A DNA stretch of 64,000 nt from Candidatus Oxydemutator sp. (GCA_965203445.1 OZ241883.1:1728001-1792000); one strand, 5' to 3'; positions 7,027 to 58,852 are shown, counted from the first letter of the stretch. Made by a program: numbers and translations. Notes: a model not told the origin generated them from the letters alone.

Positions 7027-9063
<2,037 letters not shown>

Positions 9064-28676: not shown

Positions 28677-28707
28677 GATCTGCTGATTATCGTGTATGAT
28701 TCATCGC

Positions 28708-29171: not shown

Positions 29172-32100
29172 GTGCTGATGCGTCAAAATAATGAATCTCT
29201 GACGTGGCGGTTGTGCGAGCAACCACATGGCGCAGAACCTGATCCTGTAAGTGGTTCTTCGTTATTGTCCTTCCTACTGCGAGCGCTTGGTTGCAAAACT
29301 GGCGCTCCTGATTTTGACAACTGGCTCGTTCAGTCAACTGGCCGCTGTCGGCCTGTTTCAGTTGTTATTCTCCTGACAGTAGTATTGCTCAGCATGCCGG
29401 CTGCGGTCGTTGCGCAGGGCACTGGCGGCGTGTGTGATCGCACCGAGCAGGTGAAGCGTGCAATAGTGCAGGCAGCGGAAGTGGCGGAATGCAGTTTGGT
29501 TACGGCGGAGCAGTTGGAGATGATTACTTCGCTGGATATCAGCAGCCGTAGCATAAGCCGATTGCGGGTGGGTGACTTTGCAGGGTTGGATGAGTTGGCA
29601 TCACTGCGCTTGGACGGGAACCGTCTGACTGGCCTGGAGCCGAGGATATTTGCCGGTTTAGTCGCTTTGGAGCGTCTGTATATGAGTTCCAACCATTTGG
29701 TCACGTTGGAGAATGGTGCGTTCTCGGGGTTGACGAGTTTGCGGATGTTGACGTTGAGCGACAATCGAATCAGCAGCGCGGGAGATGTATTTGCGAATAC
29801 CAGCCTGAGCGCGTTGACGGTGTTGGATATGTCGGGGAATCGGTTGGAGAGATTGGGTGAAGGAGCATTTTCTGGTTTGGGGCAGCTGAAAGAATTGCGT
29901 TTGGGGAGTAATTGGATAAATAGAATGGAAAGTGGTGCTTTTTCGGGGTTGGGCAATTTGGGTAGATTGGTTCTGCAAGGGAATCGTTTGCGGGACCTGC
30001 CTGCGGATATATTTTCGGGATTAGATTTAGGCATGTTGGATTTGTCCGGCAATCCGATGGATCCATTCGTGTTGGAGTTGCGCCTGGAGGCTTGGGAGGA
30101 AGGAGTGCGTGCGCGCATAAGGGAAGGGGCGCCTGCGGCGATAAAGGCATCCTGGTCTGCGTCGGGCGGTTCGAGCGAGATGGGTCAGGTAGAGGTGGCG
30201 GCGGGCGCGTTGGCGAGCGGGGTATTCGGTTTGGAGCGTGCGCACGTGGAGCCTGCGATGATAAGGCTGCATGATGCTCAGCAGTTGCTTCCGTCCGCGT
30301 CCTACCGTGGTATTCGTATATCGGCGACGGGCATCGTGACGTTGAGATGGCGTGGGCCTCGGTTTGTTGGGGGAGTGGAGGATCAGATATACACGGTGGG
30401 TGTGGAAGTATCGTCAAAGTTGCCGGCGGCGGTAAGCGGTACGCGTCCGTTGCGCTACAGTTTGTCTGGAGATTCCCCGCTGCCGTCGGATTTGGCGTTC
30501 GACCCGTTGACGCGGGTATTGTCGGGGACTCCGACGCGGGTGCAGGGGGGTGTGTATCGCTACACGGTGGAGGACGCGGTGGGTCGCAGGGCTACGACGG
30601 AGATCGGCATTCGCGTGCGCGGTGAGGTATGTGCCCGCACGCGAGCGGTTCATGAGGAGATAGCGCGCAGGGCGGGTCATTCGGACTGCGACTACGTCAA
30701 AGAAAACGATCTTGCGCGTATAGAGACGCTGATCATAAGCGACCGTGGATTGAGCGAGTTGCAGCTTGGTGATTTCGGGGGTTTGAGCGGCTTGAGGTCT
30801 TTGCGTATGGAGGGGAACGGTTTGAGGCGGTTGAGACATGGGATATTTTCGGATCTGGTTCGCTTGGAGCGTCTGTATATGAGTTCGAACCATCTGGTGA
30901 CGTTGGATAGCAGAGTGTTTTCGGGATTGGTCAGTTTGCGCATGTTGACGTTGAGCGGCAACTGGATAAGCGACGTTGGCGAACTGTTCAAGAACACGAG
31001 TTTGAGCGCGCTGACGGCGTTGGATTTGTCGAGGAATCGTTTGGGTGGATTGGGCGACGGAGCATTTTCGGGCTTGCGGCGTTTGGAGACGTTGCAGTTG
31101 GCAGGCAACCAAATAAGCACGCTGGATAGCGGAGCATTTTCGGGATTGGATAGTTTGCGCACGCTGACGTTGTCTGGAAATGGGTTGACGAGGTTGCCCG
31201 CCGAGATATTTGTCGGCATGGAGTTGACGGGCGGTCTGGACTTGTCAGGCAATCCGGTGGACCCATTCGTGTTGGAGTTGCGCTTGGAGGCTTGGGAGGA
31301 AGGAGTGCGTGCGCGCATAAAGGAAGGGGCGCCTGCGGCGATAAAGGCATCCTGGTCTGCGTCGGGCGGTTCGAGCGAGATGGGTCAGGTAGAGGTGGCG
31401 GCGGGCGCGTTGGCGAGCGGGGTATTCGGTTTGGAGCGTGCGCACGTGGAGCCTGCGATGATAAGGCTGCATGACGTTCAGCAGTTGCTTCCGGCCGCGT
31501 CCTACCGTGGTATTCGTATATCGGCGACGGGCATCGTGACGTTGAGGTGGCGTGGGCCTCGGTTTGTTGGGGGAGTGGAGGATCAGATATACACGGTGGG
31601 TGTGGGAACGTCGTCAAAGTTGCCGGCGGCGGTAAGCGGTACGCGTCCGTTGCGCTACAGTTTGTCTGGAGATTCCCCGCTGCCGTCGGATTTGGCGTTC
31701 AACCCGTTGACGCGGGTATTGTCGGGGACTCCGACGCGGGTGCAGGGGGGTGTGTATCGCTACACGGTGGAGGACGCGGTGGGTCGCAGGGCTACGACGG
31801 AGATCGGCATTCGCGTGCGCGGTGAGGTATGTGCCCGGACGCGAGCGGTTCATGAGGAGATAGCGCGCAGGGCGGGTCATTCGGACTGTGACTACGTCAA
31901 AGAAAACGATCTTGCGCGTATAGAGACGCTGATCATAAGCGACCGTGGATTGAGCGAGTTGCAGCTTGGTGATTTCGGGGGTTTGAGCGGCTTGAGGTCT
32001 TTGCGTATGGAGGGGAACGGTTTGAGGCGGTTGAGACCTGGGATATTTTCGGATCTGGTTCGCTTGGAGCGTCTGTATATGAGTTCGAACCATCTGGTGA

Positions 32101-35100: not shown

Positions 35101-38100
35101 GTTTGGAGTTGGAGGAAGGAGGAGCGCGCGTGCATATCGAGGAAGGAGCTCCCGTCAGAATAGAAGTAACGTGGACTTCATCGGAGGATGCAAGTAGAAC
35201 GAGAGTGGTCTCGGTAAGCGCGGGCACGACGGTAAGCGAAGTACTGCGCATGGTCGGTACGCAGTCGGTGACGATCACGCTGCACGCCGCCCGGTTGGGG
35301 CGCGTTTTCGGTCGTATAGAGGGATTGGTCGTGGAGGCGACGGACAGCGCGGTGTTGTCGCCCCGCCCCCCTCCTCCATTGCCGCCGATGGACGCCGGTA
35401 TATGTGATCGCACGCGCCAAGTTTATGAGGCGATAGCGGACAAGGTGGGCGTGGATAGCTGCGCTGATGTCACGACCGGACACCTGGTGATGATAGAAGC
35501 CTTGGACATAGACGGAAGAGGCGCGACGGAAGTGCGTGCGGGTGACTTTGCGGGCTTGAGCGGTCTGCGTCGTTTGTATTTGGGGGATAACAGGTTGAGG
35601 AGTCTGCCTTCCGGCGTGTTGTCGGAATTGGGCAATTTGGAGGAGTTGCATATAGACGGCAACAAGTTGGGCGATCTGCCGTCGGGGATATTCGGGGGTT
35701 TGGGCAGTTTGCGTGAATTGTCGTTGAGCGGCAACGAATTGCAGAGATTGGAAGCAGGCGTGTTCGAGGGATTGAATGCGCTGGGCAGTCTGTATTTGGA
35801 CAACAACGAGTTAAGCGGTTTGCAGTCTGATACGTTTGTCGGCTTGTCGCGTTTGAGCAGCCTGCGTCTGCACGACAACCGTTTGGAGGGTCTGCCGGCG
35901 GATATATTTCAGGGATTGAAATTGTCGAATAGTTTGACGCTGCACGGGAACGGGAACGATCCTGTTGAGTTTTGGGTGTATCCGGAGTTGTCATCGGAAG
36001 GTGATCGAGCGCGCGCGCATATAGCGGAAGGGGCGTTTCTCGGGATGTTGGTGGATTGGGAATCATCGGGTGGATACGTGGATAGAGGGGAGGTGGAGTT
36101 GTCGGCGGGAACGAGTGCAAGCGAGTTGTTCGGCATGGCGCGTCCGACGACGGTGACGGTGGAGTTGTCGTCGGTCGAGATAGACGGCTTGCCGCGGATG
36201 GAGAGAACGGACGACGCGACGGGGCCGTATAGCGGATTTCGGGTGGCGACGACGGACAGCAGGAAGGTTTTGCGTTGGAACGGTCCGTTGCTTGCGCGCG
36301 AGGTGAAAGATCAGTTGTATACGGAGGGCGTGGGGATAGCTCCGTTGGAGTTGCCGTCTGCGGATGGCGGCGATCTTCCGTTGGAATATAGCTTGTCCGG
36401 CGAATTGCCGGAGGGATTGAAATTCAGCACGTTGACGCGGACGTTGACGGGTACGCCGACGAAGGTGCATAGGGAGAGTAGCTACGTATGGAGGGTGGCG
36501 GATGCGTCGGGTCGTGTGCACCAGAGCGGATTCAAAATCAAGGTGCAGTCAGAGGTGTGCAGGAGGACGCTGGAGGTTCGTGATGCGATAGTGGATGCGT
36601 TTATGGGCGTGCGAGTATGCGATTACGTGAAGGCGGAGCATTTGGCCTCGATCACGGTGCTGGACATCAGCAGCCAGGGAATAGTCCGGTTGAAGGAAGG
36701 CGACTTTGGGGGCTTGAGCGGTCTGCGCCGTTTGCATTTGGGTGGTAACGAATTGAATAGCCTGCCATCCGGCGTGTTTTCGGAATTGGTCAGTTTGGAG
36801 GAGTTGCACATAGATGGCAACAAGTTGGGCGGTCTGCCGTCGGGTATATTCGAGGGCCTGGTCGGCTTGCGCGAATTGTCGTTGAGCGGCAACGAGTTGA
36901 GCGATTTGAGTACGGATACGTTTGTCGGTTTGTCTCGTTTGAGCAGTCTGCGTCTGCACGACAACCGTTTGGGGGGTCTGCTGCACGACAACCGTTTGGC
37001 GGATCTGCCGGAGGGTATATTCCTGGGATTGGAATTGACGGATAGTTTGACGTTGCATGGGAACGGTAACGATTATTTTAAGTTTCAGGTACGTCCGGAG
37101 TTGTCTTCGGAAGGTGATCGAGTGCGCGCGCATATAGCGCAAGGGGCGTTTCTCGGGATGTTGGTGAATTGGGAATCATCCGGCGGATACGTGGATAGAG
37201 GAGAGGCGGAGTTGTCTGCGGGGGCGAGTGCGAGCGAGTGGTTCGGTATGGCGCGTCCGACGACGGTGACGGTGGAGTTGTTGTCGGTCAAGATTGACGG
37301 CTTGCCGTTGTCGGAGAGAACGGACGACGCGACGGGGCCGTATAGCGGATTTGAGGTGACGGCGACGGGCCGCGAGAATTTGCGTTGGAACGGCCCGTTG
37401 CTTATGCGCGAGGTGGGGGATCAGTCGTATACGGAAGAGGTGGGGATAGATCCGTTGGAGTTGCCGTCGGCGGATGGCGGCGATGCTCCGCTGGCATACA
37501 GCCTGTCCGGTGAATTGCCGGAGGGATTGAAATTCAGCACGTTGACGCGGACGTTGACGGGTACGCCGACGGAGGTGCATAGGGAGAGCAACTACGTATG
37601 GAAGGTAGCGGATGCGTCGGGTCGTGAGGACAGGAGGGAGTTCACGATCAAGGTGCGGTCGGAGGTGTGCGCGAGGACGCCGCAGGTTCGAGACGCGATA
37701 ATGGAAGCGTTGATGGGCGTTATTCCCGTATGCGACTACGTGAAGGCGGAGCATTTGGCCTCGATCACGGTGCTGGACATCAGCAGCAAGAGGATAGCCC
37801 GGTTGGAGGAAGGCGACTTTGCGGGTTTGAGCGGTCTGCGCCGTTTGCATTTGGGCGGTAACGAATTGAATAGCCTGCCATCCGGCGTGTTTTCGGAATT
37901 GGTCAGTTTGGAGGAGTTGCATTTGGACGGCAACGAGTTGGGCGGTCTGCCGTCGGGGATATTCGGGGGTCTGGTCGGCTTGCGCGAATTGTCGTTGAGC
38001 GGCAACGAATTGCAGGAATTGGAAGCAGGCGTGTTCGGGGGATTGAATGCGCTGGGCAGCCTGTATTTGGACAACAACGAGTTAAGCGGTTTGCGGTCTG

Positions 38101-50100: not shown

Positions 50101-53100
50101 ACTTTGTGTACGTAGTGTCCGAGGGAGATAAGGACACGGACGGCATCAGCGTGTCGTCGAACTCACTGCTTGGTTCTTTCTATGCGACGGGCCGTGGCAG
50201 CGCGAGCGGCGTGTCGCACGGCGTGTTGTCGGCGCAGCCGGGCCACAAGGTGCGCGGGAGGCCGGAAGTGTGCGGTCGCACTCGACAGGTTCGAGACGAG
50301 ATCATGGAGCAGGCGGGCGTATCGAACTGCGCGCTGGTCACGATGGAACATCTGTCCTCGATAACGACGCTGAATCTGATGAGTCAGAGTATCAGCGCGT
50401 TGAAGGACGGCGACTTCGACGATTTGGTCAATCTATCCTATCTGGGTCTGATGAAGAACCAGTTGGAGATCTTGCCGGCCGGTTTGTTTTCGGAATTGCA
50501 GAGTTTGGGGACGTTGCTTCTGTATTGGAACCGATTGACGACTCTTTCGACGGGGACGTTCGTTGGCTTGAGCAATCTGACGGAACTGAATCTGAGAGAT
50601 AACCATTTGTCGAGCGTAGCCGCGGCAGCGTTTTCCGATCTGAGCGACTTGGAGTCTCTGGATATTAGCTACAATCATTTGTCAGAATTGCCGGAAGGTT
50701 TGTTTGCAGGTTTGGTTCATTTGCGTCACTTGCACATGAACAACAACCGCCTGACGGAGTTGCCTGTGGGTATATTTGACGGTTTGAATTTGGAGACGTT
50801 GCATCTGTACCGCAACGCGAGTCGTCCGGTGGTGATGGACATGTATCCGGAGTTGTCAGGGTCTGGTTTCCGCGTGCGAATAGACGAGGGAGCGCCGCGT
50901 GCGATCCGCGTGAATTGGGCATTGTCGGGCAGTATGAGCACGGGCATGGCGATGATAGCGGCGGGTGCGCGTGTGAGCAGCGTGACGCAGGTATCGGGCG
51001 CGCCTCGTGAGGGAGTGATCACGTTGAGCGATCCGGTGCTTGCGGGCGTGTCCGAGGCGACGGACGAAGACAGTCTTGCAGGCCGTTATTCCGGCTTTCG
51101 CTTGTCGGTGGCGTTGTCGGCGCCGAGCGTGACGATAACGGGGACGTCGCCGATGTTTTACGAGGAGGTACCCGCGCAGAGTTACCTATGGGGTGAGGCG
51201 ATAAGCGAGCTGCGGTTGCCGAGGGCGCGAGGCGGTCGTGCACCGTTGCGCTACAGTCTGTCGCCGACAATGCCGGCGGATTTGTCGTTCAGTACGGCGA
51301 CGCTGATCATATCGGGGACGCCGATGGAGGTGCAGAGTGCGACGACCTACACGCTGACGGCGGTGGACGCGGATAGTAAGGAAGCGACGCTGCAATTCAG
51401 CATTGTCGTGGCGGATGACTACGACAAGGACGGCGATGGTCTTATCGAGGTGTATAGTCTGGCGCAGTTGAACGCGATACGCTGGGATCTGGACGGCGAC
51501 GGCAGCAGTCCGACTAACGTGAGCGCCTACGCCGAGGCGTTCCCAGGCGCGGCGACAGGGATGGGTTGTCCGACCGCAGGCGGTTGCATTGGCTACGAGT
51601 TGGGTGAGAGCAGTGCAAGCGCGGTGTCACTGACGTTCAACACGGGGGATCTAAGCACCCGCACGGACGACGAGTATTACAACGGCGGCGCGGGCTGGGA
51701 GCCGATAGGCGGTGGTGCGGGGATTTCCTACGCTTTGGATCAGTTCTGGTACTACCATGGTGGTTCCAGGCTTACTAGAGGTGTGGACCCGATAGACGGT
51801 GGCTTGGGGGATTCCTACTCTGGCGTTTTCCGGGGCAACGGACATGTCATCTCGGACTTGTTCATCAATCGATCAGAAGGCAACGATGTTGGCTTGTTCG
51901 GTCATTTGAGCTCTGAGGGCCAATTGGAGGACGTGGGATTGGCGAACGTGGACATCATGGGGCGGTCCCATGCAGGCAGTTTGGTGGGTTACAACAGAGG
52001 GACGATCAGTGGCAGTTTTGCGACGGGAACGGTTGCTGGAAGTTGGGGCAATTCCATAGGGGGCTTAGTGGGAAGCAACGTTGACGGTACGATAGACAAG
52101 AGCTACTGGGTGGGTTCAGTCGCTGATTGGGGTATGGTGAATCCTTACTCCATAGGAGGCTTAGTGGGGAACAACGTTCGTGGCACGATAGGCGAGAGTT
52201 ATTCGATGGGTTCAGTTGGCAGGGTGACGTATGGTCACTATATAGGCGGTTTCGCAGGGAGAAACTATCTAGGCATGATAAGCAAGAGTTATTCGATGAG
52301 TTTAGTCAGGGCGGACAGTCGCAGCGTAGGCGGCTTTGTGGGAGGCAACATTGGCGGTTCGATAAGCGGGAGCTATGCAACGGGTTCAGTTATCAGAGAA
52401 GGGTTGAGGGCAGGTGGGCCGAGGAGGGATAGCTTTTATGGTGGTTTTGTGGGGAATAACTATGACGGTGGAATGATAAGCGCAAGTTACGCGACGGGTG
52501 CAGTTAGGGGAGCGTATCAAAACGTCGGTGGTTTCGTGGGGTACAACAATTACGGTACAATACGCAGCAGCTATGCGGTGGGCGCCGTCAGCGGTAACAA
52601 TAATGTGGGTGGTTTTTTGGGATGGGGCATCAATGAAGGGATATGGGATATCGACCCCTATACGAGGTCGTTTATATGGGCACCTTCCACAGGGATAACC
52701 GCCAGCTACTGGGATACCGACGCCTCTGGCCTCAACAGCAGTGCCGGCGGCATAGGCAAAACCACGATCGCACTACAGACACCAACCACCTACACTGGTA
52801 TTTATGCCAGTTGGAACGCGGACGTGGACGGCAGCACCGCGACTGGCGTCGGTGGCAGGGACGACCCGTGGGATTTCGGCGACTCAACGCAGTATCCGGT
52901 ATTGCAATACGGCGGTCTGGACGTTGACTTGCAACGGCGCCTGCTGCCGCTGACGGCGAGATTGCGGGTAGCGTCGGTGCCGGCTCGTGGCGACACCTAC
53001 CGCGCCGGCGAGACGATCCGGATGCGTGCTTCGTATGGTCGGGATGACGTCAGGGCACCGGCCGACGCGGTGTTGAGAGTAGTCATCGGTGGCAATGTGG

Positions 53101-56100
53101 TTGCCGCGACGGTAGTTGCGGCTGCTGGCAGCACCAGTGCGACGGACTTTGTGTATGTGGTGTCCGAGAGGGACGAGGACACGGACGGCGTCAGCGTGTC
53201 ATCGAACTCGTTGCTTGGTTCTTTCTATGCGACGGGTCGTGGCAGCACGAGCGGCGTGTCGCACGGCGTGTTGTCGGCGCAATCGGGCCACAAAGTGCGT
53301 GGGAGACCGGAGGTGTGCAGCCGCACTCGACAGGTTCGAGACGAGATCATGGAGCAAGCGGGCGTATCGGACTGCGCGCTGGTCACGATGGAACATCTGT
53401 CCTCGATAACGACGCTGAATCTGATGAGTCAGGGCATCGGCGCGTTGAAGACGGGCGATTTCGACGGTTTGGTCAATCTATCTTATCTGGGTCTGATGAA
53501 GAACCAGTTGACGGCCTTGCCGGATGGTTTGTTTTCGGATTTGAGCAATCTGGTGGAATTGAATATGAGAGGCAATCGTTTGTCGAGCATAGCTGCGGGG
53601 ACGTTTTCCAGCTTGAACAGTCTGGAGTCTCTGGATATAAGAAGCAATCGTTTGTCGAGCATAGCTGCGGGGACGTTTTCCAGCTTGAGCAGTTTGGAGT
53701 CTCTGGATATAAGAAGCAATCCTTTGCCGAGTATAGCTACGGGGACGTTCTCCGGCTTGAGCAGTTTGGAGGTTCTGAAGATAGGCAACACTCATAGGTT
53801 GTCGGAATTGCCGGCCGGTTTGTTTTCGGATTTGACGGAGTTGCGGGTACTGAATTTATGGCACAACCGTTTTACAAGCCTTCCGTCGGATACGTTTGCA
53901 GGTTTGGTCAATTTGAGTCGCATAAGTCTGAATCACAACCGTTTGGCTAGTCTGGAATCGGATTTGTTTTCCGGTTTGAGGAGTCTGACGAGCTTGCGCC
54001 TGGACAACAACCGCCTGACGAAGTTGCCAGCGGGTATATTTGACGGTTTGAATATGGCGGGGTTGCATCTGTCCCGCAACACGAGTCGTCCGTTGATGAT
54101 GGAAGTGTATCCGGAGTTGTCAGGGTCTGGTTTCCGCGTGCGGATAGACGAGGGAGCGCCACGTGCGATGCGCGTAAATTGGGCATTGTCGGGCGGTATG
54201 AGCACGGGCGTGTCGGTGATAGCGTCGGGTGCGCGGGTAAGCAGCGTGACGCAGGTATCGGCAGCGCCTCGTGAGGTGGTGATCACGTTGAGCGGCCCGG
54301 TACTTGCGGGCGTGTCCGAGGCGACGGACGAAGACCGCCTTGCAGGCCATTATGATGGTTTTCGCTTGTCGGTGGCGTCGACGCCGAGCGTGACGATAGC
54401 AGGGACGTCGCCGATGTTTTACGAGGGAGTGCCGGCGCAGAGTTATCCGCGGGGCGAGGCGATAAGCGAATTGCGGTTGCCGAGGGCGCGCGGCGGTCGT
54501 GCACCGTTGCGCCACAGCCTGTCGCCGTCAACGCCGGAGGGTTTGGTGTTCAGCACGGCGACACTGATCGTTTCGGGGACGCCGGCGGAATTGCAGAGTG
54601 CGACGACCTACACGCTGACGGCGGCGGATGCGGATGGTAAGGAAGCGACGCTGCAATTCAGCATTGCCGTGACGATGAATGACTACGACAAGGACAACGA
54701 TGGTCTTATCGAGGTGGGCAATTTAGCGCAGCTGAACGCGATACGCTGGGATCTGGACGGCGACGGCAGCAGTCCGACTAACGCGAGCGCCTATGCGGCG
54801 GCATTTCCAGGCGCGACGGCAGGGATGGGTTGTCCGACTGCGGACGGCTGCATAGGCTACGAGTTGGGTGAGAGCAGTGCAAGTGTGGTGTCGCTGACGT
54901 TCAACACGGGGGATCCGAGCACCCGAACGGACGACGAGTATTACAACGGCGGTGCAGGTTGGGAACCGATAGGCAATGGCGCGAGTAATTCCTACTCTGG
55001 CGCTTTCCGAGGCAACGGGCACGTCATCTCGAACTTGTTCATCAATCGAACAAGCAATTATATCGGCTTGTTCGGCTATTTGAGTTCTGCGGGCAAGTTG
55101 GAGGATGTGGGATTGGCGAACGTGGACGTCAGGGGACGACAGCAGGTAGGCAGTTTGGTCGGGTACAGTGGAGGGACGATAACCGCCAGCTACGCGACGG
55201 GCGTGGTCAGCGGGACATCTTATGTAGGCGGCCTTGTGGGGAGCAATTCTGGAGAGATAGCCGTCAGCTACGCGACGGGCATGGTAAGTGGCACTGGATG
55301 GCATACAGGCGGCCTCGTGGGAACCAACTACAGTGGCGTGAGATCTAACGACGGTGGAACGATAACCGCCAGCTCCGCGACGGGCGCGGTCAGCGGAACA
55401 TATGATGTAGGCGGCCTCGTGGGATCCAACGGCGATGGAACGATAACCGTCAGCTACGCGACGGGCGCGGTTCGCGGGCGTATGTGGGTAGGTGGCCTCG
55501 TGGGGAGCAGTGGCCTATATGGAAATGGAAAGATAATCGCCAGTTACGCGACGGGCGTGGTCAGCGGGAGGGGGAGTGTAGGCGGCCTTGCGGGGAGCAA
55601 TTCTGGAGAAATAACCGCCAGCTACGCGACGGGCGCGGTCAACGGGAGAGGGAATAGTGTAGGCGGCCTTGTGGGGGACAACCATGGAGAGATAGCCGCC
55701 AGTTACGCGACGGGCGCGGTCAGCGGGACATGGAATGTAGGCGGTCTCGTGGGAAACAACGACGGAAAGATAACCTCCAGCTACGCGATGGGCGCAGTCA
55801 GCGGGAGCGGGACATATAAATATAATGTAGGTGGCTTTGTGGGGCTCAATGGTGGTAGAGGGACGGTAACCTCCAGCTACGCGACGGGCGCAGTTAGCGG
55901 GACAAAGTATGTAGGCGGCTTTGTGGGGGGCAATGCTGGAGAGATAACCGCCAGCTACGCGACGGGCGCGGTCAGCGGGACACTTTATGTAGGTGGCCTT
56001 GTGGGGTACGGTTATAATTCTGGAGAGATAACTGCCAGTTACGCGACGAGTGTGGTCAGCGGGACATGGATTGTAGGCGGTCTCGTGGGGAGCAGCTTGG

Positions 56101-58646
56101 GAACGATAACCGCCAGCTACTGGGATACCGACCTCTCTGGTCTCAACAGTAGTGCCGGCGGCCTGGGCAAAACCACGATCGCATTGCAGACACCGACCAC
56201 CTACACCGGCATTTACGCCGACTGGAATGTGGACGTGGACGGCAGCACCGCGACCGGCGTAGGTGGCAGGGACACCCCGTGGGATTTCGGCAGCCCAACG
56301 CAATATCCGGTACTGCAATACGGCGGTCTGGACGTTGACTTGCAACGGCGCCTGCTGCCGCTGACGGCGAGGTTGCGGGTAGTGTCTGTGCCGTCGCATG
56401 GCGACACCTACCGCGCTGGCGAGACGATCCGGGTGCGTGCTTCGTATGGTCGAGATGACGTCAGGGCGCCTGCCAGCGCGGTGCTGAGGATAGTCATTGG
56501 CCGCAGGGCGGTAAGCGCGAGGGCGGTTGTGGTCGCCGGCAGCACCAGCGCGACGGACTTTGTGTATACAGTGTCAACGGTGGACGCGGACACGGACGGC
56601 ATCAGCGTGTCACCGAACTCACTGCTTGGTTCTTTCTATGCGGCGGGTCGTGGCAGAACGAGCGGCGTGTCACACGGTGTGCTGTCGGCGCAACCGGGGC
56701 ACAAAGTGCGTGGCGTGAGAAGATACTCCAGTTTGCAATTGCCGCCGCCGACGCCGAGTGTGACGATAGCGCGCATAGAATCGTCTGTCAGGACGACGAT
56801 AGACCACGACCAGGATAACGACGGCCTGATAGACGTTGATACGCTGTCGGAGTTGAACGCGATTCGTTGGGATCTGGACGGTGACGGCGTCGCCGACACC
56901 ACGGCCACGGCCGCCGCCTACGCCGAGGCCTTCCCCGCAGCCGTCGCGGGCATGGGCTGTCCCGCTTCGGGTTGCATCGGTTACGAGTTGGTCGCCGCTC
57001 TCGATTTCGACACCGACAAAGACCGCGTAGTCGAGGCTACCGACGCCGGCGGCGCCTACTGGAACGCTGGCGCCGGCTGGTTGCCCATCGGTGCATTCAA
57101 CGCGGTGTTCGACGGCAACGGTCATACAATAGCGAACCTGTATATCAACCGCGGCACGGACGAGACTGGTTTGTTCGGCGACAATATGGGCACTATAGAG
57201 GGCGTGGGTCTCGTGGCCGCGAAAGTAACGGGCGGCGTTCGCACCGGTGCTCTGGCGGGCAAAAACCGCGGCACGATCCGCGCGAGTTACGTGACGGGCA
57301 AGGTGACGGGCGAGGGCGGTTTGCTCGGTAGTGCCTACGGCGGCGCCGGCGGCTTGGTGGGGAGCAACGAAGGGGGGACGATCATAGCGAGTTATGCGCT
57401 GGCGGAAGTCGGTGGCATAAGGATCGCCGCCGGTGGCTTGGTGGGCCGCAACAATCACGAGATCATAGCGAGTTACGCATTGGGGTGGGCGCGTAGTACG
57501 GCGACGCTGTCTTCCGCCGGCGGTTTGGTGGGCAGTGACGCGAGTGCTCTACGCAGCGGTCGGGCGCGCGTGACGTCGAGTTACTGGGACGTCGAGACGA
57601 GCCGGTTGTCGGAAAGCGGCAGCGGCAGCAGCAAGACGACGGCGCAGTTGCAGACGCCCACGGGTTATACGGGCATATACTCCACCTGGAACGTGGACGT
57701 GGACAACGCCGACGGCGGCGGTTACGGCTATGCGGGCGCGTTGGCGAGCGGCGGCGACGATCCGTGGGATTTCGGCACGTCGTCGGAGTATCCGGTGCTG
57801 AAGTATGACGGCTTCGACGTGGAACGCCAGCGCCGTCTGTTGCTGCCGGGGGTGACGGTGCAGGCACGCGCGTATTTGCAGGGGGCGTATGACGCCGCCG
57901 CCAATGCGATGAAGACTACGTATTTGCAGTATCTGCCGTCGGGGCAACCGTACGGAGTGTCGCCGTGGCGCCATGCGACGACGGCGACGGTTCCGCACGT
58001 ATCGGGCGACTTCGGCTTGTCCGCGGTGACTTCGACGGTGGTGGATTGGGTGCTGATCGAATTGAGAGCGACACCGAAGGGTGCGTCTGCATCTTCTGCG
58101 ACGTCGTCGCTGGCGATTGGCAGACAGGCGGCGTTGCTGTTGCGCGACGGCGTCATAGCAGGCATGGACGCGCGCGCGACGACGGCGGTGGATGCGCTGC
58201 ACGGAGGTTTTGTGCACTTCCCGGTGGCAGTGAACGCCGCGGTCGAAGATATATACGTGCTGATTCACCACCGCAACCACCTGTCGGTGATGTCGCCGCT
58301 GCCCGCCGGCAGTTGCGAGGGCGCCGATTATTGCGTTGACTTCACGAGCGCGCAATCGCATCAGAACGGTCAACGTGCGCTGTCGAGCGATGCGTATGCA
58401 ATGTATGCCGGCGACGTGAACCGCGACGGCGTCATCACCACCGCGGATGGTTTGCGTATTACCGCGGCGACACCGGTGGTCATTGGTGCCGCGCATTACG
58501 GCGCCGCCGATGCGGCGGGCGGCTACGTCATTGATCTGGATTTGGACTTCGACGGCGAGGTTATGCAAGACGACGCTCTGTTCATCACGAACCATGGCGC
58601 CGTTCCGGTGTCCGCTTGCGACGTTTGCCTCCCGCCCTTGGAGTAG
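29172..58646 (+). CDS. Giant (9,824 aa) repetitive surface/secreted protein: LRR blocks, putative Ig domains, GLUG-type beta-helices, dockerin-like C-terminus
   Basis: Uninterrupted 29.5 kb ORF; LxxLxLxxNxL repeats; 'LPxxLxF...LSGTP' Ig-like units; 'VGGLVG' repeats; 'DYDKDxDGLIEV' Ca-binding loops; signal-like hydrophobic stretch at aa ~64-82; exact start uncertain. Confidence 0.9.
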   Translation: MLMRQNNESLTWRLCEQPHGAEPDPVSGSSLLSFLLRALGCKTGAPDFDNWLVQSTGRCRPVSVVILLTVVLLSMPAAVVAQGTGGVCDRTEQVKRAIVQAAEVAECSLVTAEQLEMITSLDISSRSISRLRVGDFAGLDELASLRLDGNRLTGLEPRIFAGLVALERLYMSSNHLVTLENGAFSGLTSLRMLTLSDNRISSAGDVFANTSLSALTVLDMSGNRLERLGEGAFSGLGQLKELRLGSNWINRMESGAFSGLGNLGRLVLQGNRLRDLPADIFSGLDLGMLDLSGNPMDPFVLELRLEAWEEGVRARIREGAPAAIKASWSASGGSSEMGQVEVAAGALASGVFGLERAHVEPAMIRLHDAQQLLPSASYRGIRISATGIVTLRWRGPRFVGGVEDQIYTVGVEVSSKLPAAVSGTRPLRYSLSGDSPLPSDLAFDPLTRVLSGTPTRVQGGVYRYTVEDAVGRRATTEIGIRVRGEVCARTRAVHEEIARRAGHSDCDYVKENDLARIETLIISDRGLSELQLGDFGGLSGLRSLRMEGNGLRRLRHGIFSDLVRLERLYMSSNHLVTLDSRVFSGLVSLRMLTLSGNWISDVGELFKNTSLSALTALDLSRNRLGGLGDGAFSGLRRLETLQLAGNQISTLDSGAFSGLDSLRTLTLSGNGLTRLPAEIFVGMELTGGLDLSGNPVDPFVLELRLEAWEEGVRARIKEGAPAAIKASWSASGGSSEMGQVEVAAGALASGVFGLERAHVEPAMIRLHDVQQLLPAASYRGIRISATGIVTLRWRGPRFVGGVEDQIYTVGVGTSSKLPAAVSGTRPLRYSLSGDSPLPSDLAFNPLTRVLSGTPTRVQGGVYRYTVEDAVGRRATTEIGIRVRGEVCARTRAVHEEIARRAGHSDCDYVKENDLARIETLIISDRGLSELQLGDFGGLSGLRSLRMEGNGLRRLRPGIFSDLVRLERLYMSSNHLVTLESRVFSGLTSLRMLTLSDNWISDVGELFKNTSLSALTALDLSRNRLGGLGDGAFSGLRRLETLQLAGNQISTLDSGAFSGLDSLRTLTLSGNGLTRLPAEIFVGMELTGGLDLSGNPVDPFVLELRLEAWEEGVRARIKEGAPAAIKASWSASGGSSEMGQVEVAAGALASGVFGLERAHVEPAMIRLHDVQQLLPAASYRGIRISATGIVTLRWRGPRFVGGVEDQIYTVGVGTSSKLPAAVSGTRPLRYSLSGDSPLPSDLAFNPLTRVLSGTPTRVQGGVYRYTVEDAVGRRATTEIGIRVRGEVCARTRAVHEEIARRAGHSDCDYVKENDLARIETLIISDRGLSELQPGDFGGLSGLRSLRMEGNGLRGLEPEIFSDLVRLERLYMSSNHLVTLDSRVFSGLVSLRMLTLSGNWISDVGELFENTSLSALTALDVSRNRLSGLGNGAFSGLRRLETLQLAGNQISTLGSGAFSGLDSLRTLTLSGNGLTGLPAEIFSGMELTGGLDLSGNPMDPFVLELRLEAWEEGVRARIKEGVPAAIKAFWSASGGSSEMGQVEVAAGALASGVFGLERAHVEPAMIRLHDVQQLLPAASYRGIRISATGIVTLRWRGPRFVGGVEDQIYTVGAGTSSKLPAAVSGTRPLRYSLSGDSPLPSDLVFNPLTRVLSGTPTRVQGGVYRYTVEDAVGRRATTEIGIRVRGEVCARTRAVHEEIARRAGHSDCDYVKEDDLARIETLIISDRGLSELQLGDFEGLSGLRSLRMEGNGLRGLEPEIFSDLVRLERLYMSSNHLVTLDSRVFSGLVSLRMLTLSGNWISDVGELFENTSLSALTALDVSRNRLSGLGNGAFSGLRRLETLRLGGNRIRVLGNGVFSGLKDLDKLHLSGNQLNGLGNTFMNTSLSALRVLDLSGNQLEMLNAGVFSGVARLEELNLGDNKIYDLASGAFSGMRSLTKLLLQRNELGELPRDIFTGLELKHTLDLSGNSDGPFVLHASLELEEGGARVHIEEGAPVRIEVTWTSSEDASRTRVVSVSAGTTVSEVLRMVGTQSVTITLHAARLGRVFGRIEGLVVEATDSAVLSPRPPPPLPPMDAGICDRTRQVYEAIADKVGVDSCADVTTGHLVMIEALDIDGRGATEVRAGDFAGLSGLRRLYLGDNRLRSLPSGVLSELGNLEELHIDGNKLGDLPSGIFGGLGSLRELSLSGNELQRLEAGVFEGLNALGSLYLDNNELSGLQSDTFVGLSRLSSLRLHDNRLEGLPADIFQGLKLSNSLTLHGNGNDPVEFWVYPELSSEGDRARAHIAEGAFLGMLVDWESSGGYVDRGEVELSAGTSASELFGMARPTTVTVELSSVEIDGLPRMERTDDATGPYSGFRVATTDSRKVLRWNGPLLAREVKDQLYTEGVGIAPLELPSADGGDLPLEYSLSGELPEGLKFSTLTRTLTGTPTKVHRESSYVWRVADASGRVHQSGFKIKVQSEVCRRTLEVRDAIVDAFMGVRVCDYVKAEHLASITVLDISSQGIVRLKEGDFGGLSGLRRLHLGGNELNSLPSGVFSELVSLEELHIDGNKLGGLPSGIFEGLVGLRELSLSGNELSDLSTDTFVGLSRLSSLRLHDNRLGGLLHDNRLADLPEGIFLGLELTDSLTLHGNGNDYFKFQVRPELSSEGDRVRAHIAQGAFLGMLVNWESSGGYVDRGEAELSAGASASEWFGMARPTTVTVELLSVKIDGLPLSERTDDATGPYSGFEVTATGRENLRWNGPLLMREVGDQSYTEEVGIDPLELPSADGGDAPLAYSLSGELPEGLKFSTLTRTLTGTPTEVHRESNYVWKVADASGREDRREFTIKVRSEVCARTPQVRDAIMEALMGVIPVCDYVKAEHLASITVLDISSKRIARLEEGDFAGLSGLRRLHLGGNELNSLPSGVFSELVSLEELHLDGNELGGLPSGIFGGLVGLRELSLSGNELQELEAGVFGGLNALGSLYLDNNELSGLRSDTFVGLSRLSSLRLHDNRLAGLPEGIFLGLELTDSLTLHGNTSEPIVFLVSPGLSAEGDRARANIAQGAFLGMLVNWVSSGGYVDGGEVELSAGTSASESFGMARPTTVTVELLSVKVDGLPLSERTDDATGPYSGFRVATTGSASLRWNGPLLMREVEDQSYTQGMEIRPLELPSGVGGDVPLGYSLSGELPEGLKFSTLTRTLTGTPTEVHRESNYVWKVADASGREDRREFTIKVRSEVCARTPQVRDAIVEELTVLVPGTRVCDYVKAEHLASITVLDISSKRIAQLEEGDFAGLSGLRRLHLGGNELNSLPSGVFSELVSLEELHLDGNELGGLPSGIFGGLGSLRELSLSGNKLRGLEAGVFGGLNALGSLYLDNNELSGLRSDTFVGLSRLSSLRLHDNRLAGLPEGIFLGLELTDSLTLHGNTSEPIVFLVSPGLSAEGDRARANIAQGAFLGMLVNWASSGGYVDGGEVELSAGTSASESFGMARPTTVTVELLSVKIDGLPLSERTDDATGPYSGFRVATTRSVSLRWNGPLLAREVEDQSYMEGVEIRPLELPSADGGDVPLGYSLSGELPEGLKFSTLTRTLTGTPTEVQRESDYIWEVVDASGRRHGSAFTIKVRSEVCTRTPQVRDAIVEALTVLVPGTRVCDYVKAEQLALIAALDISSQSIVRLQQGDFAGLSSLQSLNLSGNQLTRIRLGIFAGLADLRELDLSSNEIGRLEEDAFSGLGNLRKLLLDNNRISGMASMVFADLSNMTTLSLRGNRLSSLPENVFVGLSLKDLLDLSSNPGSPLKLSVRVESSNNGRARARIREGAPLTIEVLWLSSGDSSVPGAAYIRDGTIASEVFGMPHPRESMTITLIDAKSADVVEQLDDAEGSYRGFRLATTGSVTLPCTDLWFDQAVSPQVFLRGVAVGDPGFRLPAARSCRPPLTYTLSPKLPMGLTFSSATRVISGIPSEVWPAATYTLTAMDADGDEATLQFSLVVKANDYDKDNDGLIEVVNLAQLNAIRWDLDGDGSSPTDASAYAEAFPGAAAGMGCPAVDGCVGYELGEDDASAVSLTFNTGDPSTRTDDEYYNGGAGWEPIGNASNSYSGVFQGNGHVISDLSIHRAGRFIGLFGRLGSAGRLVDVGLANVDVRGQFYVGSLVGYSRGTISNSSATGTVSGTDGGFSIGGLVGINDGAIDKSYAKGAVFANDGDGAIGGFAGGNLGTISESYATGVVSGGDGSVGGFVGSNRGMITDCHATGAVSGDESVGGFVGSNDRDHTIIGSYAAGAVIRSNFGGGFVGQNKGAISASYAVGAVTGNLAGGFVGYDEGIIGASYAVGAVTGNLAGGFVGYSKGTITAGYATGAVMGENLAGGFVGHNAGTLIANYVAGAVIGHRKGGFTGIDSGMVTDGYWDTDVSGLDRSADYGPDTGAIGKTIIALQTPTTYTGIYASWNVDVDGSTATGVGGRDDPWDFGDSTQYPVLQYGGLDVDLQRRLLPLTARLRVASVPARGDTYRAGETIRMRAAYGRDDVRVPADAVLRVVIGGRTVSATVVAVAGSTSATDFVYVVSEADEDVDGISVSSSSLLGSFYATGRGSTSGVSHGVLSAQSGHKVHGGDWVPTFGEETLSAQSYVVGERVTLTLPAATSGDGVLTYALSPAPPGGLRLSTSSRVLTGVPLDVTLTTTYTWTATDTDGDKAELSFTIAVRSGVCDRTPQVRDEIMEQAGVSDCALVTMEHLSSITTLNLMSQNISALKAGDFDDLVNLSYLGLMKNQLEVLPAGLFSELRSLGTLHLYWNRLTSLSTGTFVGLSNLVELNLEETHLSSIAAGTFSGLSRLESLDIGNNRLSELPAGLFSELRSLRKLLLYSNRLTSLSTGTFAGLSNLAELNVQGNRLSSIAAGTFSGLSSLKFLDMKHNPLPSIATGTFSGLSSLEVLKIGNTYRLSELPAGLFSDLTELQVLNLWHNRFTSLPSDTFAGLVNLSHLRINHNRLASLESGLFSGLKSLTSLRVNNNRLTKLPAGIFDGLNLTRVLHLYQNTSRPVVMEVYPELSGSGFRVRIDEGAPRAMRVNWALSGGVSSTGVAMIAAGARVSSVTQVSATPREVVITLSDPALAGVSEATDEDRPGSRYAGFRLSVASVPSVAIAGTLPMFYEGVPAQSYLRGEAISELQLPRARGGRAPLRYSLSPSTPEGLVFSTATLIISGTPMEVRSATTYTLTVVDADSKEATLRFSIAVADDYDKDGDGLIEVYSLSQLNAIRWDLDGNGSPTTNASAYAEAFPGATAGMGCPTAGGCIGYELGESSASAVSLTFNTGDPSTRTDDEYYNDGAGWEPIGGGVSNSYSGVFRGNGHVISDLFINRTNGYIGLFGYLGSAGKLEDVGLANVDVRGRQQVGSLVGYSGGTITASFAAGAVSGSERWDVGGLVGYNSGEIIASSATGAVNGRGNSVGGLVGYNSGEIIASSATGAVNGRGNSVGGLVGRNYGEISASSAMGAVSGTLHVGGLVGYNLREITTSFAMGVVSGTSYVGGLVGSNAGEISASYATGAVSGGWFYAGGLVGGNYGEISASSATGAVSGEWFVGGLVGGNYGEISASYATGVVSGTKYAGGLVGGNYGEISASYATGVVSGTKYAGGLVGRNYNSGEISASSATGAVSGTPDVGGLVGVNYGDITASYAMGAVNGEVFVGGLVGGNYGEGDITASYATGVVSGISYVGGLVGFNGEEITASYATGVVSGISYVGGLVGYNYGEGDITASYAMGAVSERRRDVGGLVGVNWVNYGDITASYWDTDASGLNSSAGGMGKTTIALQTPTTYTGIYASWNVNVDGSTATGVGGRDDPWHFGNSMQYPVLQYGGLDVDLQRRLLPLTARLRVVSVPAHGDTYRAGETIRMRASYGRDDVRVPADAVLRIAIGNSTVSATVVAVAGSTSATDFVYVVSEGDEDGDGISVSSNSLLGSFYTTGRGSTSGVSHGVLSAQPSHKVRGRPEVCGRTPQVRDEIMEQAGVSNCALVTMEHLSSITTLNLMSQSISTLKAGDFDDLVNLSYLGLMKNQLTVLPDGLFSELQSLRTLHLYWNRLTSLSTGTFAGLSNLVELNLEETHLSSIAAGTFSGLSRLESLDISNNRLLELPTGLFSELSNLVELNMRSNRLSSIAAGTFSSLSSLESLDIRSNRLSSIAAGTFSSLSSLESLDIRSNPLPSIATGTFSGLSSLEVLKIGNTHRLSELPAGLFSDLTELRVLNLWHNRFTSLPSDTFAGLVNLSRISLNHNRLASLESDLFSGLRSLTSMRLDNNRLTKLPAGIFDGLNMAGLHLSRNTSRPVMMEVYPELSGSGFRVRIDEGAPRAMRVNWALSGGMSSTGMAMIAAGARVSSVTQVSAAPREVVITLSGPVLAGVSEATDEDRLAGHYDGFRLSVASTPSVAIAGTSPMFYEGVPAQGYLRGEAISELQLPRARGGRAPLRYGLSPPMPEGLVFSTATLIISGTPMEVQSATTYTLTAVDADSKEATLQFSIAVTVNDYDKDNDGLIEVSNLAQLNAIRWDLDGDGSSPTDASAYTAAFPGATTGMGCPTAGGCIGYELGESSASAVSLTFNTGDPSTRTDDEYYNGGAGWEPIGSGASNSYSGVFRGNGHVISDLFINRSSDYVGLFGYLSSAGKLEDVGLANVGVRGRSIVGSMVGHSRGTISGSFATGTVIGRSIVGGFVGVNYSGISGDGTISGNGTISESYSMGSVRSMGGGSIGGLVGDNSGEITASYAMGAVRGSSVYAYRGVVGGLVGYNGGKITASYATGAVNGGVHSIMGGLVGYDPIMGGLVGYNSGDITASYATGVARESSGIYRDYRDIIGGLVGRNPPSGEITASYWDTDTSGLDGSAVGIGKTTIALQTPTTYIGIYADWNVNVDGSTATGVGGRDAPWDFGNSMQYPVLQYGGLDVDLQRRLLPLTARLRVVSVPAHGDTYRAGETIRMRASYGRDDVRVPADAVLRIAIGNSTVSATVVAAAGSTGATDFVYVVSEGDKDTDGISVSSNSLLGSFYATGRGSASGVSHGVLSAQPGHKVRGRPEVCGRTRQVRDEIMEQAGVSNCALVTMEHLSSITTLNLMSQSISALKDGDFDDLVNLSYLGLMKNQLEILPAGLFSELQSLGTLLLYWNRLTTLSTGTFVGLSNLTELNLRDNHLSSVAAAAFSDLSDLESLDISYNHLSELPEGLFAGLVHLRHLHMNNNRLTELPVGIFDGLNLETLHLYRNASRPVVMDMYPELSGSGFRVRIDEGAPRAIRVNWALSGSMSTGMAMIAAGARVSSVTQVSGAPREGVITLSDPVLAGVSEATDEDSLAGRYSGFRLSVALSAPSVTITGTSPMFYEEVPAQSYLWGEAISELRLPRARGGRAPLRYSLSPTMPADLSFSTATLIISGTPMEVQSATTYTLTAVDADSKEATLQFSIVVADDYDKDGDGLIEVYSLAQLNAIRWDLDGDGSSPTNVSAYAEAFPGAATGMGCPTAGGCIGYELGESSASAVSLTFNTGDLSTRTDDEYYNGGAGWEPIGGGAGISYALDQFWYYHGGSRLTRGVDPIDGGLGDSYSGVFRGNGHVISDLFINRSEGNDVGLFGHLSSEGQLEDVGLANVDIMGRSHAGSLVGYNRGTISGSFATGTVAGSWGNSIGGLVGSNVDGTIDKSYWVGSVADWGMVNPYSIGGLVGNNVRGTIGESYSMGSVGRVTYGHYIGGFAGRNYLGMISKSYSMSLVRADSRSVGGFVGGNIGGSISGSYATGSVIREGLRAGGPRRDSFYGGFVGNNYDGGMISASYATGAVRGAYQNVGGFVGYNNYGTIRSSYAVGAVSGNNNVGGFLGWGINEGIWDIDPYTRSFIWAPSTGITASYWDTDASGLNSSAGGIGKTTIALQTPTTYTGIYASWNADVDGSTATGVGGRDDPWDFGDSTQYPVLQYGGLDVDLQRRLLPLTARLRVASVPARGDTYRAGETIRMRASYGRDDVRAPADAVLRVVIGGNVVAATVVAAAGSTSATDFVYVVSERDEDTDGVSVSSNSLLGSFYATGRGSTSGVSHGVLSAQSGHKVRGRPEVCSRTRQVRDEIMEQAGVSDCALVTMEHLSSITTLNLMSQGIGALKTGDFDGLVNLSYLGLMKNQLTALPDGLFSDLSNLVELNMRGNRLSSIAAGTFSSLNSLESLDIRSNRLSSIAAGTFSSLSSLESLDIRSNPLPSIATGTFSGLSSLEVLKIGNTHRLSELPAGLFSDLTELRVLNLWHNRFTSLPSDTFAGLVNLSRISLNHNRLASLESDLFSGLRSLTSLRLDNNRLTKLPAGIFDGLNMAGLHLSRNTSRPLMMEVYPELSGSGFRVRIDEGAPRAMRVNWALSGGMSTGVSVIASGARVSSVTQVSAAPREVVITLSGPVLAGVSEATDEDRLAGHYDGFRLSVASTPSVTIAGTSPMFYEGVPAQSYPRGEAISELRLPRARGGRAPLRHSLSPSTPEGLVFSTATLIVSGTPAELQSATTYTLTAADADGKEATLQFSIAVTMNDYDKDNDGLIEVGNLAQLNAIRWDLDGDGSSPTNASAYAAAFPGATAGMGCPTADGCIGYELGESSASVVSLTFNTGDPSTRTDDEYYNGGAGWEPIGNGASNSYSGAFRGNGHVISNLFINRTSNYIGLFGYLSSAGKLEDVGLANVDVRGRQQVGSLVGYSGGTITASYATGVVSGTSYVGGLVGSNSGEIAVSYATGMVSGTGWHTGGLVGTNYSGVRSNDGGTITASSATGAVSGTYDVGGLVGSNGDGTITVSYATGAVRGRMWVGGLVGSSGLYGNGKIIASYATGVVSGRGSVGGLAGSNSGEITASYATGAVNGRGNSVGGLVGDNHGEIAASYATGAVSGTWNVGGLVGNNDGKITSSYAMGAVSGSGTYKYNVGGFVGLNGGRGTVTSSYATGAVSGTKYVGGFVGGNAGEITASYATGAVSGTLYVGGLVGYGYNSGEITASYATSVVSGTWIVGGLVGSSLGTITASYWDTDLSGLNSSAGGLGKTTIALQTPTTYTGIYADWNVDVDGSTATGVGGRDTPWDFGSPTQYPVLQYGGLDVDLQRRLLPLTARLRVVSVPSHGDTYRAGETIRVRASYGRDDVRAPASAVLRIVIGRRAVSARAVVVAGSTSATDFVYTVSTVDADTDGISVSPNSLLGSFYAAGRGRTSGVSHGVLSAQPGHKVRGVRRYSSLQLPPPTPSVTIARIESSVRTTIDHDQDNDGLIDVDTLSELNAIRWDLDGDGVADTTATAAAYAEAFPAAVAGMGCPASGCIGYELVAALDFDTDKDRVVEATDAGGAYWNAGAGWLPIGAFNAVFDGNGHTIANLYINRGTDETGLFGDNMGTIEGVGLVAAKVTGGVRTGALAGKNRGTIRASYVTGKVTGEGGLLGSAYGGAGGLVGSNEGGTIIASYALAEVGGIRIAAGGLVGRNNHEIIASYALGWARSTATLSSAGGLVGSDASALRSGRARVTSSYWDVETSRLSESGSGSSKTTAQLQTPTGYTGIYSTWNVDVDNADGGGYGYAGALASGGDDPWDFGTSSEYPVLKYDGFDVERQRRLLLPGVTVQARAYLQGAYDAAANAMKTTYLQYLPSGQPYGVSPWRHATTATVPHVSGDFGLSAVTSTVVDWVLIELRATPKGASASSATSSLAIGRQAALLLRDGVIAGMDARATTAVDALHGGFVHFPVAVNAAVEDIYVLIHHRNHLSVMSPLPAGSCEGADYCVDFTSAQSHQNGQRALSSDAYAMYAGDVNRDGVITTADGLRITAATPVVIGAAHYGAADAAGGYVIDLDLDFDGEVMQDDALFITNHGAVPVSACDVCLPPLE
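30041..34690 (+). repeat. Near-identical 1200-bp tandem repeat, ~3.9 copies (400-aa LRR + beta-domain + Ig unit)
   Basis: GGTGAGGTATGTGCCCG recurs at 30621, 31821, 33021, 34221. Confidence 0.95.
35397..40170 (+). repeat. Second tandem family, ~1.11-1.17 kb units, ~4 copies
   Basis: LRR caps at ~35400, 36555, 37665, 38823, 39990; 'ERTDDATGPYSGF' occurs four times. Confidence 0.9.
41085..57850 (+). repeat. Third family: six GLUG-type units, the first five separated by Ig-like and LRR segments (spacing 2.1-3.8 kb)
   Basis: D(Y/H)DxDxDGLI motif at 41085, 44796, 48636, 51417, 54681, 56802; each unit ends in 'LQTPTxYxGIY...PWxFG...YPVL'. Confidence 0.9.
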
Positions 58647-58852
58647 CCCGTCAATCGTTTATTGTTGCAATACTGGAGCAGACCTCGTGGGCAGGTCATT
58701 GTGTATTTGACTTTGCATTCAGCCGTGTCTATTGATAATGGCTGCTATGGTGTTAACAGAGGGTAAAGGCTGAGCGCGCCTCGCTTGCGAGATTCGTTCA
58801 TAACGGCAAGGCGCTTATTACTAGTCTGGTTCGACTTCGGCAGACCTCCGGT

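Follow-up and report, generated by a model that had tools for sequence, protein, structure and literature searches.

In cellulosomes, anchoring relies on an X-module-dockerin that binds a type II cohesin (as set out in the available part of PMC5141474), and the gene logic of the bacterial relatives considered here is the same. In Vibrio, a GlyGly-CTERM, rhombosortase and a type II secretion system (T2SS) are reported, in the accessible text of PMC6219818, to suffice for the surface display of VesB. Studies of sponge symbionts have counted domains, and the available portion of PMC11706023 gives no account of 10,000-aa arrays of capped leucine-rich repeats (LRRs) or of dockerin-based display. 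The literature covered, outside subscription papers and supplements, held no description of such a protein type or system.

Here we consider a window of 64,000 nt from Candidatus Oxydemutator sp. (GCA_965203445.1 OZ241883.1:1728001-1792000), a bacterium likely associated with sponges, whose genome, hereafter G000, is one contig of 2.38 Mb and 100% complete. The window encodes a 9,824-aa repeat protein that we think is likely an exported fibre, clipped to the cell surface via a predicted X-module-dockerin (XDoc) on a cohesin-like scaffold, and one of about 25 interchangeable, probably adhesive fibres. Given that the predicted XDoc C-terminus is common to 24 other G000 proteins, the window protein likely belongs to a modular coat of the cell surface, as one of its plug-in fibres.

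Reading frame, repeats and caps

The gene is a single open frame whose sole stop lies at its 3' end (Table 1); the single 9,824-aa frame of the preliminary description is thus confirmed, in a complete single-contig genome, and its view of a giant repeat protein, which is probably exported, is supported. By eye, no clear ribosome-binding site precedes the candidate starts. The GC3 of 0.69 is the lowest in the gene's family (housekeeping genes, 0.82-0.93). Short-read contigs of runs X1 and X2 and of metagenome X3 cover 30 of 30 bins of window 40500-59500, and none of these contigs spans that whole interval. X1 and X2 come from the same sample, which may be the source, and X3 is an independent sponge metagenome, whose listed contig pieces differ by ~2-5% from the window; with a close strain present in X3, the suggested link to sponges also stands. 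Contig support covers the 3' 19 kb only, and the copy number of the first repeat family, in the 5' half, is that of the assembly. No stretch of at least 200 bp elsewhere in G000 is more than 77% identical to the giant gene.

Table 1. Features of the giant gene and its upstream flank, in window coordinates
Position	Strand	Feature	Basis
28678..29089		IS4/5-family remnant, present in many copies, close to the gene on its upstream side (context only)	Repeat search
29172..58646	+	ORF of 9,824 aa, start codon uncertain	Frame translation
29343..29414	+	Signal-peptide-like segment, aa 58-81: basic, hydrophobic, AVVA followed by Q	Inferred from sequence
29433..35402	+	Family A, five units, caps at aa 88, 487, 887, 1287, 1687	Pfam, patterns, self-comparison
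35403..41084	+	Family B, five units, caps at aa 2078, 2463, 2833, 3219, 3608	Pfam, patterns, self-comparison
41085..42555	+	GLUG module 1: DxDxDG opener, two-Cys segment, 9 GLUG-type motifs	Pfam, patterns
43212..56800	+	Family C, four units, caps at aa 4681, 5961, 7034, 8049	Pfam, patterns, self-comparison
56802..57828	+	GLUG module 6	Pfam, patterns
57852..58643	+	Predicted C-terminal X-module plus dockerin (XDoc-like), common to 24 further G000 proteins	AF2 model, Foldseek, profile
57852..57884	+	First beta-strand of X-module, equivalent to relatives' C-terminal V(K/R)VFLEG tag and absent from their standalone catchers	Sequence
58413..58574	+	Pair of canonical Ca-binding loops of dockerin type, aa 9748-9759 and 9790-9801	Sequence

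A ~200-bp repeat, 86-88% identical, lies on both flanks of the giant gene (window:28472-28675 and 59709-59907), and window:58900-59700 is 90% identical to G000:1981654-1982452, next to which lies a further IS remnant copy; this may be what is left of a mobilisation event. Directly upstream, after a tRNA at 16538, is a low-GC island (window:17193-28531) with a DNA methylase, three AAA_15/AAA_21 ATPases, a DUF4276 protein and a ResIII-like protein, which looks like a type III restriction and defence cluster. Rfam matches in the window are two tRNAs only.

The protein carries 20 repeat solenoids, 14 LRR blocks and six GLUG solenoids, and Pfam LRR_8, He_PIG and Glug all score far above cut-off. 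The architecture proposed in the preliminary description (14 LRR blocks opened by two-Cys caps, 24-aa repeats, interleaved beta-rich and Ig domains, six GLUG solenoids opened by DxDxDG, and three successive repeat families) is borne out in each respect. The cap pattern C-x-RT...C-x-x-V occurs exactly 14 times, with 28 of 28 cap cysteines kept. LRRs number 90 by a strict pattern and ~119 by a relaxed one, and their spacing is 24 residues in 81 of the 91 intervals measured. Ig-like domains are marked by 14 He_PIG-type motif ends, and each of the six GLUG blocks (5-15 motifs apiece) is opened by a D-x-D-x-D-G-L-I segment.

DNA self-comparison separates three unit families: A (caps aa 88-1687, spanning aa 88-2077), B (caps 2078-3608, spanning 2078-3971) and C (caps 4681-8049, from aa 4681 onwards). 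A family A unit consists of the two-Cys cap, 8-11 LRRs and an unnamed beta domain, the first four units closing with He_PIG, and a family B unit of a cap, 6-7 LRRs, a beta domain and He_PIG. Family C units are longer, with a cap, 7-13 LRRs, a beta domain, He_PIG, a GLUG module (starting at 44796, 48636, 51417 and 54681) and a further unnamed beta domain. Pfam has no family for the inter-LRR or post-GLUG beta domains, and a single-sequence search of a GLUG module against solved chains gave no match.

Given that adjacent units are up to 99% identical in DNA (aa 487/887, 99%; 887/1287, 97%; 2833/3219, 95%), the gene grew via three rounds of tandem duplication. The 14 LRR blocks are three duplicated families, not 14 specificities. 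The earlier idea of ~20 separate binding solenoids, if taken to mean distinct specificities, is not supported, as units are 95-99% identical in DNA; such near-identical units argue for length or avidity over many specificities.

The LRRs belong to the 24-residue 'typical' class, and their best solved matches are animal ectodomains (IGFALS 7wrq, LRIG1, LGR4 and TLR3), with E down to 1e-58. To this extent the earlier assignment to animal-type LRRs with Cys caps holds; the caps themselves do not fit it, as they have two cysteines, versus four in LRRNT. No cysteine follows an LRR block, and Pfam finds no LRRNT, LRRCT or Internalin_N in the window protein or its caps. Among the 60 solved matches shown for the cap profile, internalin H alone has its best stretch reaching the cap (a weak match, positions 11-46, E 0.021), designed LRR proteins align weakly to the cap in secondary stretches, and the best stretches of the animal chains begin at the first LRR, after the cap. 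The cap may be an internalin-like helical cap with a closing disulfide.

The capped LRR module was recovered in at least 38 further database proteins, several of them with T9SS-like C-termini by eye, and in 3 of 301 genomes of a class-wide sample, a patchy distribution. Given these database proteins and their tails, this is a shared bacterial module, and the capped-LRR unit is bacterial and apparently internalin-like, more than a mere animal receptor copied into a bacterium. Of 18 same-family genomes, 11 have LRR_8, and two of these (G016 and G008) encode LRR proteins of several thousand residues, so that the architecture is unusual and not unique.

Within G000, LRRs are confined to the giant gene and one 1,554-aa paralogue. 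That paralogue (L035, G000:C1:156892-161556, minus strand), the only other capped-LRR protein of the genome, is by eye an enzyme-bearing cargo with an HExxHxxGxxH metalloprotease-like domain, cap-LRR, Calx-like domains and XDoc. Peptidase-like proteins of three other genomes (L016, L017 and L019, in G015, G005 and G017) have an internal tag followed by a capped-LRR block, as though the LRR module had been appended behind a former C-terminal tag. In another family of the class, G109:C5:384844-422248 encodes proteins of 5,100 and 6,081 aa with many of the same LRR caps.

The C-terminal module and its split counterpart

A feature that the preliminary description did not mention provides the clue to display, and makes the protein one of a 25-gene family. 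For the last 264 aa (aa 9561-9824), the predicted fold is that of an X-module followed by a dockerin, as in cellulosomes. The AF2 model has a pLDDT of 91.7, and its top 10 Foldseek matches are all type II XDoc chains of cellulosome scaffoldins (next E 0.19). VIA-align gives Z 8.5-9.1 and rmsd 3.8-4.4 over ~150 aligned residues (next fold, Z 4.0); these figures, like those for the cohesin-like domain below, are re-alignments of Foldseek's own list. A profile of the module has dockerins as its best PDB matches, and Pfam Dockerin_1 reaches 17 bits on the window protein, below its cut-off of 22.9. The X-module, for which Pfam has no family, has a conserved DW...HRNH core, and none of the XDoc, catcher and cohesin-like domains tested is represented by an NCBIfam model.

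In G000, 25 ORFs carry the XDoc module, 24 of them at the C-terminus. They make up 18.4% of the genome, or 21.4% with four giant proteins of the GlyGly type, both slight overestimates as they come from stop-to-stop frames; a symbiont with a small genome thus devotes about a fifth of its DNA to giant surface proteins. In a quick tree, the thirteen G000 modules sampled group together as a single clade (SH-aLRT 100). Twenty of the 25 modules, those of the window protein and 19 paralogues, have two canonical Ca loops, and the five that have lost the second loop are a derived type.

Several other G000 loci are worth recording. L036 (G000:C1:893360-895423, plus strand) has its XDoc at the N-terminus, after a signal-like segment and before ~360 aa that match no Pfam family. 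At G000:C1:1339579-1340763 (minus strand) lies an XDoc copy that is truncated and has an internal deletion, and at G000:C1:319503-330950 (minus strand) a 3,815-aa GLUG protein that ends without an anchor; both are possibly decayed or rearranged members of the family. Poly-G/poly-C runs of 13-27 nt lie near the 5' ends of family genes that start at G000:C1:569222, 617928, 780952, 2320364 and 2324710, where they may allow phase variation; no such run of at least 8 nt is present in or near the giant gene.

Bacteroidota and related phyla widely carry the module in its fused form (604 matches, of which the best 79 loci were kept). The pattern of its first strand is present in 62 of 69 scorable loci, and by eye the other seven have a variant strand. 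In the same family as G000, the module occurs in 15 of 18 genomes, versus 0 of 22 genomes of other families in the order. The relatives' modules are standalone proteins of ~270-350 aa, here called catchers, with a signal-like segment in the place of strand 1. Of the 78 informative top homologues (with one row left unscored and another truncated), none has that strand, whereas 18 of 30 weaker, mostly fused homologues do.

Long ORFs end with the missing strand in 29 of the 30 loci read, where it lies 3-15 residues short of the stop. An exact pattern of tag plus stop has 95 matches in one relative (G004) and 5-26 in each of nine other genomes of the family (10 of 18 in total); its TRR ending admits TGG, so that a few of the matches counted do not end in a stop (one such match was seen in each of G016 and G004), and it misses the longer-tailed tags of genus g1, seen on reading loci. 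The count is 0 in G000 and 0 in the 22 other-family genomes, with control patterns at 0-1, and outside the family it is at control level (0-2 matches in 299 genomes of a class-wide sample). With 0 of 10,033 G000 frames ending in the tag, G000 is of the fused form, not the split tag/catcher form of its family. The quick tree does not tell which of the two states is ancestral in the family.

The fused form in G000 identifies the 13-14-residue tails of relatives as the first strand of XDoc. At the level of sequence, tag and catcher are shown to be complementary, and in related bacteria the plug appears to be divided between a short tag and a catcher made as its own protein, to which the tag would bind. 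The 95-tag genome, G004, has one catcher match and one scaffold match. In G016, a 6,840-aa capped-LRR giant ends in the tag and is, judging by its primary structure, the split counterpart of the window protein. At G004:C3:513720-514220, four tag-plus-stop motifs with 156-bp spacing may be orphan gene tails or cassettes.

Cohesin-like domains and export machinery

Of 33 catcher matches in the relatives, 28 lie no more than 3.5 kb upstream of a conserved domain of about 200-220 aa, and by eye the clusters of the remaining five contain either a low-scoring copy of that domain or GlyGly-type proteins. The domain heads proteins that end in GlyGly-CTERM or in the tag. Its predicted fold is that of a cohesin: the model (pLDDT 81.4) has cohesins in all listed Foldseek rows, and on re-alignment they fill rows 1-48 (at best Z 13.0, with rmsd 2.6 and 142 aligned). 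The CLIPPER/DUF11 fold, considered for this scaffold domain from the available part of a preprint (10.1101/2025.04.25.650565), was rejected (Z 7.9 versus 13.0 for cohesins). The predicted cohesin domain is found in 14 of 18 relatives, and its adjacency to catcher genes includes the genus of G000 itself. Proteins of the Bacteroidota type have up to four copies of the cohesin-like domain, often with T9SS tails, or have it fused to XDoc. One chain of another relative (L170:4514-6466, in G011) combines a cohesin-like domain with an XDoc containing a strand-1-like segment, and sits between a catcher and a GlyGly protein; it is possibly a re-fused adaptor.

In G000, neither Pfam Cohesin nor the relatives' cohesin profiles gave any match. 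Candidates are the N-terminal domains (G000:1595137-1595724 and G000:1622274-1623038) of two adjacent genes, G000:1594987 (9,047 aa, ending in XDoc) and G000:1622100 (1,761 aa, ending in GlyGly-CTERM), which lie at 1594987-1627385 and follow each other as catcher and scaffold do in relatives. The two domains are weakly alike (E 3e-4), and HHalign was not significant for either. For one of them an Atlas search gave a weak cohesin lead (0.90, low recognition); the Atlas search with the 1622100 domain was uninformative (recognition 1595). Searches for homologues returned nothing usable: one covered lengths of 936-2981 only, and one matched only the Calx-like repeat that follows the domain. Just downstream of the candidate scaffold locus, G000:C1:1632448-1635513 holds tandem near-identical ORFs of ~260-280 aa with short internal repeats.

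The machinery for a GlyGly-anchored scaffold is present. In G000, a rhombosortase gene follows immediately on a type II secretion cluster, and ~600-750 C-terminal residues of its four GlyGly-type proteins are homologous to same-genus cohesin scaffolds (E 1e-34 to 1e-95). For a type I system, HlyD (TIGR01843) is below cut-off in G000. The window protein's own C-terminus has no GlyGly-CTERM (Gly-rich motif, hydrophobic helix and basic tail).

In the scenario that we favour, the N-terminal signal would direct Sec export, and the protein would cross the outer membrane via the type II system, whose genes are present. The dockerin would fold beside the X-module in a Ca-dependent manner, and the XDoc would dock on a cohesin, a fold predicted in relatives and represented by candidates in G000. 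The scaffold may be held at the surface by rhombosortase processing of its GlyGly-CTERM, as is established for Vibrio VesB. The LRR and GLUG solenoids may then bind host or matrix ligands at high avidity, with the Ig-like spacers adding reach.

A more specific model is possible, and we offer it tentatively as something we lean slightly against. Here, G000 would have an enzyme-free, two-tier cohesin-dockerin coat (an 'adhesosome') of a Gram-negative sponge symbiont. Twenty XDoc proteins with both Ca loops intact, the window protein among them, would dock on the N-terminal cohesin-like domain of the 9,047-aa adaptor, whose divergent XDoc would dock on the GlyGly-CTERM scaffold. G000 would then represent the unsplit state of the relatives' tag/catcher system, in which one catcher may serve up to ~95 cargo genes.

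Alternative readings and comparison with known systems

We rate the surface-fibre reading as likely and no higher because no cohesin was detected in G000, which is the main gap. The rmsd of the XDoc match is high and the structure behind it is a prediction, a chain of ~1 MDa would have to pass through a type II system, and the IS remnant lies ~80 bp upstream of a gene whose start codon is uncertain. The protein may instead be secreted and released, with the XDoc tail serving as a folding or type II export signal, or as a self-associating matrix module, with no cohesin partner left. This would agree with the failure of every profile to find a cohesin in G000 and with the loss of the second Ca loop in a fifth of the modules. 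We regard it as rather unlikely, given that the window protein and its 19 paralogues keep both canonical loops, that catcher and cohesin genes adjoin in relatives (same genus included), and that G000 retains a tandem of an XDoc gene and a GlyGly gene.

It is also conceivable that the protein is a host-modulating mimic of animal LRR receptors, with ~20 independent specificities and LRRs acquired from an animal. The animal ectodomains among the repeats' best matches, the close strain in the sponge metagenome and the enrichment of LRR proteins in sponge symbionts (stated in the available part of PMC11706023) all point that way. We consider it improbable, as the cap differs from LRRNT and gives its better alignment with internalin, bacterial proteins share this capped module, and many units are near-identical; for the binding step, mimicry and the surface fibre are compatible. 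Very improbable, in our opinion, is a silent, decaying or partly mis-assembled repeat expansion, unexpressed and without current function. The low GC3, the IS remnant beside the start, the repeats on both flanks and the unclear ribosome-binding site favour such decay, but a 29.5-kb frame without a stop, the retention of all cap cysteines and the presence of the region in an independent strain (X3) speak against it; the units also differ among themselves, which would not be expected of a simple assembly duplication.

If the surface-fibre reading is true, plug and socket would explain how the protein is held on a Gram-negative cell without a type I, autotransporter or lipoprotein anchor, and the cellulosome principle would have been carried from Gram-positive cellulose degraders to symbiont adhesion. 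The fused and split forms offer a natural tag/catcher pair, and a short list of domains (264-aa XDoc, cohesin of about 200-220 aa, and tag peptide) makes the surface assembly of sponge symbionts testable in E. coli, without culturing the symbiont.

From the perspective of known systems, the protein shares LRR content and sponge habitat with the eukaryote-like proteins of sponge symbionts covered by the available part of PMC11706023. Like the animal typical-LRR ectodomains (IGFALS, LRIG1, LGR4/5 and TLR3), it has a 24-residue repeat with an F-x-x-L convex side; unlike them, it lacks a four-Cys LRRNT or LRRCT and a membrane segment, and alignments begin after the cap. With GLUG proteins (Pfam PF07581) it has in common its six GLUG solenoids, which here are interleaved with capped LRR blocks; GLUG giants of 12,000-16,000 aa occur in 9 of 18 same-family genomes.

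Comparison with characterised adhesin families, as had been proposed, placed the protein in none of the internalin, RTX or autotransporter families. For a type I-secreted RTX adhesin, we found no RTX family, a signal-like N-terminus and no HlyD above cut-off. For an autotransporter or invasin, the C-terminus is predicted to fold as XDoc, and there is no barrel family at either end. Internalin LRRs have 22 residues. Like Listeria internalins (cap-LRR-Ig; InlH, 1h6u), the window protein has a short N-cap right before the LRRs, aligning weakly with theirs, and a beta domain right after the last LRR, but it differs in its 24-residue repeats, two-Cys cap, 14 blocks per chain and lack of an LPXTG or GW anchor; NCBIfam InlA (NF033189) reaches 39 bits against a cut-off of 1600, and the predicted XDoc occupies the C-terminus. 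As for GlyGly-CTERM/rhombosortase/T2SS display (Vibrio cholerae VesB), G000 has the machinery and four GlyGly-type proteins, whereas the window protein has no such tail of its own and its attachment would be indirect.

The cellulosome proper is set aside, given that Pfam finds no catalytic family in the window protein (this protein alone was searched). Compared with the cellulosome XDoc/type II cohesin pair (Clostridium thermocellum CipA-SdbA; PDB 2b59, 5g5d, 4u3s), the differences are a Gram-negative host, a GlyGly-CTERM anchor, cargo of repeat solenoids rather than glycoside hydrolases, a larger X-module with its DW...HRNH core, a plug split into tag and catcher in relatives, and a G000 partner represented by candidates. 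Like that pair, the window protein has a predicted C-terminal X-module plus two-loop dockerin, and in relatives the likeness extends to a predicted cohesin-fold partner on a surface-anchored scaffold and to adaptor-like proteins with both parts.
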